Shown: positions 8,164 to 45,221 of the stretch, piece by piece
Layout: the number at the start of each line of letters is the position of its first letter
Numbering within the stretch: the first letter of the stretch is position 1
Source: a virus
Taxonomy: Duplodnaviria > Caudoviricetes
Reading direction: 5' to 3' (one strand)
Virus record (IMG/VR): IMGVR_UViG_3300021426_000001
Length of the DNA: 64,000 nucleotides
Notes under the pieces: model-generated
The model's input: only the letters and a program-made list of their open reading frames with translations
What the model was told of the DNA's origin: nothing
The model's database searches: none
Made by a program: the position numbers and the translations under genes

Positions 8164-8171
8164 TATAAATA
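8164..8171 (+). promoter_or_regulatory. T4-type late promoter
   Basis: TATAAATA upstream of 8198. Confidence 0.75.
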
Positions 8172-9506: not shown

Positions 9507-10082
9507 TCAAGAATTTTCAGAAAATCTCTTGTCGTTGAGGTTTCTGAGCCACTCGTCGCACTTCATGAAGGTTCCGATCTTTCTCATCATCTTCTCGTCA
9601 CCCTCAGAGAATCCGTCATACTTGCAGCGGATCGGATATACTCTCTCGATCTTTCCGTCATCGTCCATCTCCATCTGGATAGCCCAGCCGAAGATGTGCA
9701 GGAACATGTTGATGAATCTGAACAGACCATGCTCTCTGAGCTTCTCCCACGACTCTTCGTACCAGTCAGCTTGCTTCTCCTGGACTTTCTCTTCTGGGAG
9801 CGGCTCTACCTTCTCGCCGTTACCTTCGATGAGCTTCTGGATCTCTCTAGAGATCGTCTCTACGTTCTTCAGCTTGTGCACGGCCTCTGCATCCTCGTAG
9901 AACATCGGATTGTCGTCGTGGATCTCTATGTCGAACTCGTCTTCTAGCTTCATCACTGTCTCAACATAGTCTAGCTCGTCAGCACCGAAGTCTGCTAGCT
10001 CGTCTGCTAGTCCAACTCCAGTCACGTTGAGCTGCTCTTCTATCACTTTAGCTACTCTGCTCTGAATTTCTGCAAGATTCAT
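9507..10082 (-). CDS. acyl-carrier-protein-like domain (Ser to Glu) fused to unknown domain
   Basis: DFGADELDYVETVMKLEDEFDIEIHDD versus canonical DLGADSLDxVELVMxLEEEF; start reassigned to MNLAE with GAGG RBS. Confidence 0.8.
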   Translation of the reverse strand: MNLAEIQSRVAKVIEEQLNVTGVGLADELADFGADELDYVETVMKLEDEFDIEIHDDNPMFYEDAEAVHKLKNVETISREIQKLIEGNGEKVEPLPEEKVQEKQADWYEESWEKLREHGLFRFINMFLHIFGWAIQMEMDDDGKIERVYPIRCKYDGFSEGDEKMMRKIGTFMKCDEWLRNLNDKRFSENS

Positions 10083-10113
10083 AATGTGTCCTCTTTTTTC
10101 TAGCAAATATAGA

Positions 10114-10121: not shown

Positions 10122-10194
10122 ACTCAACGGACGAAAAGTCATGATCGAGTTCAAGCAGAACATGGGAAAGAGAATATACATTCAGAGGAAGCGT

Positions 10195-10791
10195 ATGTCA
10201 TACGGTGAATACGGATTTACAAAGCGTAGCGAAGTTCAGTCTAGCTACCAGGAGTACTCTTGCAAGCCGAGAGAAGAGAAAGAGCAGTCTTACCAGGAGT
10301 ATGGCGATCCGAAGATGAGCGGAACTTGCTCTCTGTTCGGTTCACAGCCAGCTCCAGTCAATCTCGCTGCGTTCGATGAGGAGATGGAGAAGTACTGCGA
10401 GCAGCAGAGAAAGATCAAGGCAGAGCGTCTGGCTAAGAGAACTGCTTACTGCGACTGGCACGACATCCAGGGCGACATGAGAGAGAAGATTCTCAAGGGC
10501 AGAATCTCTATCGAAGAGTTCGAAGCTCTCCAGAAGTCTGCAACAGATGTCACAGAAGCGCCAGAAGGAAGGCAAGAGCCAGTTGTTCTTACTGAAGAAT
10601 TCTTTCATCCTTCAGTAGAGTTCACAAATGCGCCAGAACAGCCTGCAGAAGCTCCGGTAGAGGTTCAGACGGATGTCACTACGGCAGAGACAGAAACTGT
10701 CCCAGAACAGCCGCAAACGGGCAAAAAGAAGAAGTCTAAGAAGAATACAGAGAATACTGAGAATACAGAGGAGGTTTCAGATGCAGAGTGA
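10195..10791 (+). CDS. acidic low-complexity late protein
   Basis: GAGG RBS before MSYGEY; QSYQEY and NTE repeats; alternative start 10141. Confidence 0.7.
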   Translation: MSYGEYGFTKRSEVQSSYQEYSCKPREEKEQSYQEYGDPKMSGTCSLFGSQPAPVNLAAFDEEMEKYCEQQRKIKAERLAKRTAYCDWHDIQGDMREKILKGRISIEEFEALQKSATDVTEAPEGRQEPVVLTEEFFHPSVEFTNAPEQPAEAPVEVQTDVTTAETETVPEQPQTGKKKKSKKNTENTENTEEVSDAE

Positions 10792-44162: not shown

Positions 44163-45221
44163 TTAGGACTTGAAAGCATCAGTTTTTCTCTCTAGATGCT
44201 CAGCGAGATAGACGCCGAGGTCATAGACGGTCACGAGGTTCTTGAAGTCCTCGATCTCGTAGGACTTCTTGTTGCCGAAGAGATTGTAAGCGTCTTTCAT
44301 GAGATTCACGAAATCACTCACCTGCATAGAGTAACGTAGAATGTACTCGGTCGTGATCAAATCTCGCTGAACATGATCGTGATAGACGAGCCAGTCAACG
44401 ATGAACTTGAAGTACGGAGTTCCGTCTGCTGGCTTCTCTTCTGTATCTTTAACATTGGTCAGAGTGTGGTTTTTGAAATACATCACAAGCCCGCCAACTG
44501 TATGCAGAAAGTCCATTATCTCATTGACGAAGGAATCACCATTTTGGCCGAACTTGGCAAATGTCGACGTCATAAGATCCAAATAGTCTGACTGCGTAAG
44601 TTCTAGCTTAGATAGCTCGGTTTTGTCGAAGTCTTTAGTGTCGAAGATGGAGATATTGCCCAATACTTTGCGACAATGTTCCTGCAGCCAAGATCTTACG
44701 AAGGCTCCGACCGAGTCATCTTCTTCAACTTCTACCTTGTCGCCGACAGCCTCTTCGTTAGCGAGATCTGGCCAGTCAGCTATGCTCTTATTGAATGTCT
44801 CCATCGGAGCAGCTCTGAGATCGGGAACTCCAGCAGCGTCCATCATTTCTTGAATATTCTGCTCTACCTCTTCGAGATCCTTCATAGGTGTACCAGCGAA
44901 GCCAGGAATAGCTTGGATCTTCTCATCAGTAACTGGAGTAGGTTCGATGTCCATGCCCTGAACTGCCGTGACTCGGGCAATTCCAGTCTTCTTTGCTAGT
45001 TCTGCCTCTTTCTTGATCTTCTCTCTGGCATCGAGTCGTTCGATGACAGCATCTGCGTGACCGAACTCACGAAAGAAGTTGAAAGCTTCTTCGAAGCCGA
45101 GCTCGAAGCCCTGCTGGAACTTAGCGTCTGGCTTGTCGCATACGGACTCCATCTTGAGAATCGCCATGCGAGTACCCATCGCGTGAATCATCGCTCTTGT
45201 GAACTGATTTTCAAAATCCAT
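44163..45221 (-). CDS. protein with two degenerate ACP-like C-terminal repeats
   Basis: SDYLDLM..FAKFG..LHTVGGLVMYFKNH and SDFVNLM..YNLFG..LVTVYDLGVYLAEH. Confidence 0.65.
   Translation of the reverse strand: MDFENQFTRAMIHAMGTRMAILKMESVCDKPDAKFQQGFELGFEEAFNFFREFGHADAVIERLDAREKIKKEAELAKKTGIARVTAVQGMDIEPTPVTDEKIQAIPGFAGTPMKDLEEVEQNIQEMMDAAGVPDLRAAPMETFNKSIADWPDLANEEAVGDKVEVEEDDSVGAFVRSWLQEHCRKVLGNISIFDTKDFDKTELSKLELTQSDYLDLMTSTFAKFGQNGDSFVNEIMDFLHTVGGLVMYFKNHTLTNVKDTEEKPADGTPYFKFIVDWLVYHDHVQRDLITTEYILRYSMQVSDFVNLMKDAYNLFGNKKSYEIEDFKNLVTVYDLGVYLAEHLERKTDAFKS

Follow-up and report, generated by a model that had tools for sequence, protein, structure and literature searches.

A 64,000-nucleotide stretch of an uncultured giant phage (IMG/VR virus record IMGVR_UViG_3300021426_000001; Duplodnaviria, Caudoviricetes), here called the window, encodes a 191-amino acid (aa) protein in which an N-terminal domain with the fold of acyl carrier protein (ACP) is fused to a second, unrelated phage domain, phrog_16397. 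The serine that bears phosphopantetheine in ACPs is replaced by glutamate, both in this protein and in every fused homolog found, and, to judge from its sequence, this is no carrier protein. Very probably it is a noncarrier binding module of some kind, and the reading that we favor, tentatively, is a dead-end mimic of host ACP that would occupy the ACP site on a client protein. New here are the distinct lineage of serine-less ACP look-alike in an uncultured giant phage, its fusion to phrog_16397, and a quantified bias toward acidic residues at the serine position, with cellular counterparts.

An ACP-Fold Domain That Lacks the Phosphopantetheine Serine

The Pfam PP-binding model (PF00550) matches residues 9 to 57 of the protein at 22.5 bits, against a curated cut-off of 20.8, residues 26 to 58 match two PHROG families annotated as "acyl carrier protein," and a hidden Markov model (HMM) made from 15 phage ACPs scores the open reading frame (ORF) at 51.9 bits (E 2e-15). 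The same HMM, run on all six frames, detected no other ACP-like frame in the window. When the protein was compared by phmmer with all sequences in the PDB, ACPs were the sole matches, the best being the AcpP proteins of V. harveyi, E. coli, and B. subtilis (E 7.7e-8 to 3e-7); the alignments place Glu36 exactly on Ser36 of AcpP and stop at residue 59. An earlier note on this DNA, written from its letters and a list of its ORFs, had described a GAG glutamate codon in place of the ACP serine, a well-preserved recognition helix II, and an unrelated fused C-terminal domain, and all three observations stand: the codon aligns with Ser36, 18 of 26 positions are identical to E. coli AcpP over residues 31 to 56 (the helix II region) in the phmmer alignment, and the C-terminal part matches phrog_16397 (E 1.9e-20). 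The N-terminal domain also retains D35, D38, E47, and D56.

Structure prediction, which the note had proposed as a check, returned a confident four-helix ACP fold, the ACP-domain part of the AlphaFold model having a predicted local distance difference test (pLDDT) score of about 90. Compared with solved ACPs, the modeled domain gave template modeling (TM) scores of 0.76 to 0.85, normalized to the target, at 36 to 40% identity in Foldseek, and Z scores of 10 to 12.9 with a root-mean-square deviation (rmsd) of 1.4 to 2.4 over 73 to 79 residues in VIA. The chain matched best by VIA, 8xqx_J, is the ACP component of the Ycf2-FtsHi motor (Z 12.9, with an rmsd of 1.4 over 79 residues), and the ACP subunits of complex I came next; E. 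coli AcpP (4ihf_G) was matched with a Z score of 10.7 and 41% identity. By sequence and by model, then, the N-terminal domain derives from an AcpP-type ACP. With AcpP it shares the four-helix ACP fold, the numbering through helix II, and strong acidity, and with apo-AcpP it shares the lack of a prosthetic group, whereas it differs in having Glu36 for Ser36, in being phage encoded, and in the 100 residues of linker and foreign domain that follow the ACP part. The segment from helix II to helix IV (residues 57 to 73) exceeds its AcpP counterpart by about nine residues and has no predicted helix; among aligned full-length members of the family its P59, M60, and L71 are invariant and K72 is near-invariant (at least 90%).

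The N-terminal domain has a net charge of −17 and an isoelectric point of 4.1. A strongly acidic domain could be a generic polyanionic decoy, for example an Ocr/ArdA-type nucleic acid mimic directed against a DNA-binding defense or a host protein, for which the ACP fold would be no more than an acidic support, and a DNA mimic, T7 gp5.9, is known to inhibit MukBEF (PMC7617805). We consider such a role improbable here: AcpP is equally acidic, so that charge does not discriminate, and the conserved G-A-D-E-x-D motif and hydrophobic positions of helix II exceed what charge mimicry needs. No Ocr/ArdA-type DNA mimics were among the Foldseek and VIA fold matches of the domain, and the lists were filled by ACPs.

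Glutamate 36 Is Fixed in the Fused Family

A word-indexed search of 5.8 billion proteins gave 31 relatives at 45 to 97% identity. All but one are full-length two-domain proteins of 187 to 211 aa that share the same start, and the exception (P0030, 106 aa) consists of the C-terminal domain only. Residue 36 is glutamate in the query and in 30/30 homologs that have the N-terminal domain. The earlier note had named recent decay or sequencing error as explanations that serine in the close homologs would favor; serine is found in none of the 30, and both are ruled out as the source of Glu36. Residues 33 to 38 of the window protein read G-A-D-E-L-D, as they do in 28 sequences with the query included, and the fifth position of the motif is isoleucine in two others and valine in one. 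Invariant in the aligned full-length members are G33, A34, D35, E36, D38, M44, E47, F50, E53, I54, P59, and M60. Because glutamate rather than serine occupies the phosphopantetheine site in the query and in all 30 homologs, the protein is unsuited to being filed as a functional carrier; from the alignment, phosphopantetheinylation of the N-terminal domain at the canonical site, by AcpS or Sfp, is predicted to be impossible.

When 1.84 billion cluster representatives were searched exhaustively by HMMER, the fusion of ACP and phrog_16397 proved to be confined to two 50%-identity clusters. The same search yielded two stand-alone relatives of the N-terminal domain, P0072 with glutamate and P0036 with glutamine at the serine position, the latter being given little weight as a singleton cluster on a 2.7-kb contig. 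We did not detect any relative in GTDB genomes, the only relative in IMG/VR was a stand-alone C-terminal domain, and in one scan of metagenomes by C-terminal domain patterns a full-length relative was absent among the matches listed. A split architecture, with separate ACP-like and C-terminal domain genes in one phage, was not seen in four IMG/VR records.

Conservation within the family differs between the two domains, with a mean pairwise identity of 0.69 for the N-terminal domain versus 0.84 for the C-terminal one. Together with the fact that most of the 653 relatives matched by HMMER are stand-alone C-terminal domains, and that the close relative P0030 lacks the N-terminal domain, this could mean that the ACP-like domain is a decaying, functionless remnant and that the C-terminal domain, which in most phages functions by itself, is the part under selection. 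That explanation is very improbable, given that the N-terminal domain is open and full-length in all 30 homologs, that core and helix II positions are invariant down to 45% identity, that its model is confident (pLDDT ~90), and that glutamate, which is not one mutational step from serine, is never replaced in the fused family.

A Widespread Phage Domain at the C Terminus

In the phrog_16397 match, residues 105 to 174 of the protein align with positions 9 to 78 of the 90-position profile, and a profile built from 92 relatives scores the window ORF at 114 bits. All 92 of these sampled relatives hit phrog_16397 and 37 of them also hit phrog_3954; positions conserved across the relatives are W, G-L, N, L-H-x-F-G, P-x-R, and G-F. 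In the majority of the 653 HMMER matches the C-terminal domain stands alone, in proteins of 75 to 135 aa, whereas some members carry it at the C terminus of unrelated extensions and a few proteins have two copies. No Pfam domain was detected in the N-terminal extensions of ten long members. Among 50,697 deposited phage genomes, a detectable member is found only in Brevibacillus phage Sundance (gp81), where it is one of a series of small genes flanked by replication genes. The phrog_16397/phrog_3954 proteins, gp81 included, match the C-terminal 83 residues of the window protein but are mostly stand-alone or have unrelated N-terminal extensions, the ACP part being confined to the two clusters named above.

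A model of the stand-alone domain from the 92 relatives has a pLDDT of 92.2 and the order helix-helix-β hairpin-helix-helix. We did not detect a relative among solved structures, the best Foldseek match in the PDB having an E value of 0.16 and the best VIA match over 48,161 chains a Z score of 3.3, nor any Pfam match at E ≤ 1, and the ESM Atlas gave unnamed viral clusters only. Foldseek against BFVD found uncharacterized viral proteins together with weak matches to DUF7415, a family of T4-like phage proteins (probability 0.5 to 0.8, TM 0.38 to 0.46). Several weak matches were to MADS-box proteins, which have the same helix/hairpin/helix order, and these were given no weight (TM ~0.2).

By its profile matches, the C-terminal domain is a widespread phage domain, separate from and unrelated to the ACP part. 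It probably supplies dimerization or oligomerization, or else anchoring, because members with tandem copies exist and the N-terminal partners vary; the two-copy proteins suggest that the domain pairs with itself.

Acidic Residues at the Serine Position in Viruses and Cells

Ordinary phage ACPs retain the serine, as do the ACP of Burkholderia phage BCSR5 and most of 26 IMG/VR loci. For a survey of IMG/VR we used a strict DNA pattern of the helix II motif and varied the codon of the serine position alone. TCN codons (Ser) were found in at least 120 contigs and GAR codons (Glu) in 10. Codons beginning with C or G, which cover V, A, D, E, G, L, P, H, Q, and R and include the 10 GAR cases, were found in 15 contigs, of which 10 specify Glu, 4 Asp, and 1 Ala, whereas AAN, ACN, and ATN codons (Lys, Asn, Thr, Ile, Met) were found in none; these classes are what the survey covered. 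In the genetic code, no serine codon becomes a glutamate codon by fewer than two base changes, and mutation pressure therefore fails to explain the glutamate. The pattern suggests that an acidic residue at the serine site has been selected and does not reflect decay.

LysW, an amino-group carrier protein whose fold differs from that of ACP, carries substrates on a glutamate carboxyl. In like manner the phage domain could still be a carrier, with Glu36 or another residue as the site of covalent attachment; the strict acidic side chain at the attachment position is the sole support for this, and the idea is scarcely credible in view of the Asp and Ala found at the same site in other lineages and of the absence of any ligase, ATP-grasp, or biosynthetic gene recognized beside the gene in PHROG and Pfam searches.

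In cells, a scan of 185,579 species-representative genomes for the Glu pattern gave 34 stretches. When clustered by blastp at 60% identity, the sequences without serine fall into 32 groups, at least 12 of which have a Ser-type nearest neighbor, and serine loss has therefore arisen repeatedly. The N-terminal domain of the window protein is no closer to the other Glu types than to Ser types.

One cellular Glu-type ACP, full-length at 77 aa, is encoded in the order plsX-ACP-rnc in an Oscillospiraceae metagenome-assembled genome (MAG; SVMT01000001.1, L181:1105-3092; also L179, L185, L198, and L191), and the Oscillospiraceae/Eubacteriales protein scores 49 bits to PP-binding. Of five genomes searched, four (G005 to G008) also have a canonical Ser ACP elsewhere and three have a detectable AcpS; in the fifth, G009, which may be incomplete, the Glu-type ACP is the only one found and AcpS was not detected. 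The plsX-linked protein may act in its cells as a regulator of phospholipid synthesis that has not been described before. It resembles the window protein in having glutamate at the serine position and a full PP-binding domain but differs in being cellular, single domain, and encoded at a housekeeping locus, and the two have no specific relation.

Other Glu-type sequences turned up in varied contexts. A contig labeled as a Nostoc sp. MAG (L197:6058-6294) encodes a 78-aa near-copy of enterobacterial AcpP with Glu36 that adjoins a DDE transposase and may be a mobile-element or contaminant copy. Cyanobacterial genomes (L172, L174, L178, L199, and L201; L176, L183, L193, and L202) encode proteins of 200 to 255 aa in which a Glu-type ACP-like domain is internal or lies at the C terminus; in the Microcystis versions this domain follows low-complexity repeats rich in Ser and Tyr. 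Three viral contigs (L008:4599-5957, L023:3990-5375, and L167:3-854) have an ACP domain, with Ser in two and Asp in one, fused to a shared, uncharacterized domain with a conserved G-L-H-F/I-C motif; this is a recurrent phage fusion distinct from that with phrog_16397.

A Second Phage Lineage in the Ackermannviridae

Seven of the 10 Glu contigs in the IMG/VR survey belong to one family of 107 to 109 aa with the motif G-G-D-E-L-D. By tblastn the 107-aa family is found in 272 phage records, mostly of Salmonella, Klebsiella, Escherichia, and Dickeya phages by name, and it is often annotated as "acyl carrier protein" (examples at L038:5129-5452 and at NC_049507.1 58816-59139); placement in the Ackermannviridae was confirmed for the one record read, that of Salmonella phage pertopsoe, in which gp059 directly follows the gene for a 733-aa protein with a vWA domain. 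Homology of this family to AcpP is limited to helix II. Like the window protein, the Ackermannviridae proteins (pertopsoe gp059, Det7 gp45) are phage encoded, have D-E-L-D, and preserve helix II, whereas they are single-domain proteins with a long N-terminal extension, have no phrog_16397, and come from phages with Enterobacterales hosts. BLASTP aligns the two at 47% identity over 49 residues, covering only helix II and the loop that follows, and tblastn with the window protein as the query did not retrieve Ackermannviridae-type phages. On these alignments, we treat them as independent lineages of the same kind. A literature search, which was not exhaustive, found no paper on phage ACP look-alikes without the serine.

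The Gene and Its Genomic Setting

The reading frame of the 191-aa protein is open up to position 10181, beyond the ATG at 10082 (Table 1). We take this ATG to be the real start because AGAGGA lies 6 nt before it and every homolog starts at the same methionine. The whole-protein AlphaFold2 model (mean pLDDT 82.7) has two well-predicted domains with a low-confidence linker between them; its predicted TM (pTM) score is 0.52, and the mutual orientation of the domains is therefore undefined in the model. The linker falls below a pLDDT of 50 at residues 96 to 102, is the least conserved segment of the family (mean pairwise identity 0.59), and differs in length in P0031 and P0032.

Table 1. Features of the two-domain gene and of its surroundings in the window
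Feature	Position	Strand	Basis or remark
Two-domain protein, coding sequence with stop codon	9507..10082	-	ORF and translation, 191 aa
Shine-Dalgarno sequence AGAGGA	10089..10094	-	6 nt upstream of ATG, read from sequence
N-terminal AcpP-type ACP-fold domain, residues 1-90	9813..10082	-	Pfam PF00550, phmmer, Foldseek, VIA
Codon 36, GAG (Glu), at the AcpP Ser36 position	9975..9977	-	Sequence ("ctc" on the + strand) and AcpP alignment
Helix II, residues 35-50, partner-docking "recognition helix"	9933..9980	-	Model helix 36-50; column counts
Family-specific helix II-helix IV connection, residues 57-73	9864..9914	-	Homolog alignment; no helix predicted by the model
Acidic Pro-containing flexible linker, residues 91-108	9759..9812	-	Low pLDDT, low conservation
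C-terminal phrog_16397 domain, residues 109-191	9510..9758	-	PHROG match, E 1.9e-20
Sigma-70-like promoter candidate, ATGACA-17 nt-TATATT	10173..10201	-	10/12 consensus matches, ~90 nt upstream of ATG
Downstream co-oriented gene, 136 aa	9025..9435	-	Own sigma-70-like site at 9497-9469
TATAAATA sites	3993, 8164, 10114, 21997, 23316, 25906, 25910, 29530, 37823, 51278		T4-type late motif map

The window comes from a large phage whose small genes are mostly on the minus strand; T4-type RNA ligases are present, and no close relative was found among deposited phages. The window has 10 copies of TATAAATA, the T4-type late promoter motif, versus 0.57 expected. Two of these sites, at 8164 and 10114, lie just upstream of the starts of both plus-strand genes that flank the ACP-like gene, whereas none lies upstream of the ACP-like gene on its own strand. 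The sigma-70-like sites before this gene and before its downstream neighbor are consensus matches only, and the argument from them is one of position, not of number. A sigma-70-like site without a late motif is compatible with early or middle expression, the time of host take-over functions.

The product of the downstream 136-aa gene, for which no PHROG or Pfam match and no IMG/VR relative was found, is a possible functional partner. PHROG and Pfam searches of the neighboring genes gave no functional clue. The C-terminal part of the plus-strand ORF at 10673-11242 matches phrog_858 ("starvation-inducible transcriptional regulator," E 7.8e-12), with weak similarity to DUF5856; this ORF overlaps the frame of the ORF at 10141-10791, which makes the gene boundaries there uncertain. 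A 352-aa ORF on the minus strand (44163-45221, including 44193-44711) has no PP-binding signal by Pfam (E ≤ 0.1) or the phage-ACP HMM.

A Candidate Mimic of Host ACP

AcpP docks to AcpS and to the Fab, Lpx, and Pls enzymes via helix II, the part that the phage domain preserves best. In the reading that we favor, the protein would be expressed from a non-late promoter, and its ACP-like domain would take up the site where ACP binds on at least one ACP client, which would thereby be blocked or redirected; candidate clients are PlsB, PlsX, or PlsC, at the phospholipid acyltransferase step, AcpS, or a client that does not depend on phosphopantetheine. The fixed glutamate would bar conversion to the holo form and would place a negative charge where holo-ACP has the phosphodiester of its prosthetic group; the carboxylate might serve in place of that phosphodiester. 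The flexible acidic linker would tether the ACP-like domain to the phrog_16397 domain.

Competition for host ACP partners, which the earlier note had proposed, is plausible. Apo-ACP inhibits glycerol-3-phosphate acyltransferase, more strongly than holo-ACP does, and stops growth (PMC3896788), and apo-AcpP stimulates MukB to the same degree as holo-AcpP (PMC8602292). SpoT, one of the targets that the note had named, is reported not to bind apo-ACP (PMC3896788); MukB and the lipid A enzymes, also on its list, may be missing from the host. The Glu-type ACP between plsX and rnc fits Glu-type ACPs acting on the ACP clients of phospholipid synthesis.

What the analysis shows is homology, fold, the invariant glutamate, the fused architecture, and the acidic bias of the replacements; partner binding, target identity, and the role of the C-terminal domain are what we infer here. 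Several points weigh against a mimic of host ACP. E41, a residue important for many AcpP-enzyme contacts, is not constant in the family, being E in 15 sequences but K in three and N in two, and the extended, conserved segment at residues 57 to 73, missing from AcpP, may form a different binding surface. The N-terminal domain is conserved less well than the C-terminal one, so that the main function could reside in the latter. The IMG/VR survey counts contigs, not independent events, and saw only ACPs with the strict helix II motif. Finally, sigma-70-like sites are not enriched over shuffled sequence, with 2 in the region versus 1.5 expected.

Some of these points would also suit another explanation, in which the ACP fold was co-opted as a structural or adaptor component of a complex encoded or remodeled by the phage and binds a partner of its own rather than competing with host ACP. 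The variable E41 and the family-specific segment, which suggests a new surface, would be in keeping with this, as would the covalent tether to another conserved phage domain and the co-oriented 136-aa gene directly downstream, and the top structural matches are themselves subunits of complexes, the Ycf2-FtsHi ACP first and the complex I ACPs next. The mitochondrial ACP of Plasmodium lacks the serine and still works. It is a binding subunit with Isd11-Nfs1 (PMC8547962) and thus a precedent. The organelle ACPs (Plasmodium mitochondrial ACP, complex I, Ycf2-FtsHi) use the ACP fold as a protein-binding subunit, as is proposed for the phage domain, but they are eukaryotic, have LYR-type or motor partners, and mostly still bear acyl-phosphopantetheine, and none combines an acidic replacement with fusion to a phage domain. 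We regard an adaptor role as less probable than mimicry, if a serious contender: the domain is best preserved in helix II, where ACP clients generally dock, no co-occurring partner gene is known, and the acidic replacement recurs in unrelated lineages of differing architecture, which suggests a property shared with host ACP.

Carried further, mimicry of host ACP might extend well beyond the window. The Glu/Asp-type look-alikes would then be a widespread, undescribed class of "phosphomimetic" holo-ACP mimics in phages and bacteria, one that has arisen many times and regulates or blocks ACP-client enzymes while carrying no acyl groups, and the fusion in the window would be a bivalent, tethered version that stops or redirects host membrane-lipid synthesis early in infection. 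This larger picture is unlikely.

Implications

ACP is among the most connected of bacterial proteins, serving the synthesis of fatty acids, phospholipids, lipid A, biotin, and lipoate and having MukB, IscS, and SpoT among its clients. If the favored reading is true, a phage copy of ACP that cannot be loaded but keeps its docking helix intact would be a simple means of interfering with this hub, a strategy of which no phage example has been characterized. The idea that a carboxylate replaces the phosphodiester is a clear, testable hypothesis, and with the Glu-type protein of the Ackermannviridae the target could be sought in a tractable laboratory system. Hundreds of phage genes now labeled "acyl carrier protein" are probably misannotated.

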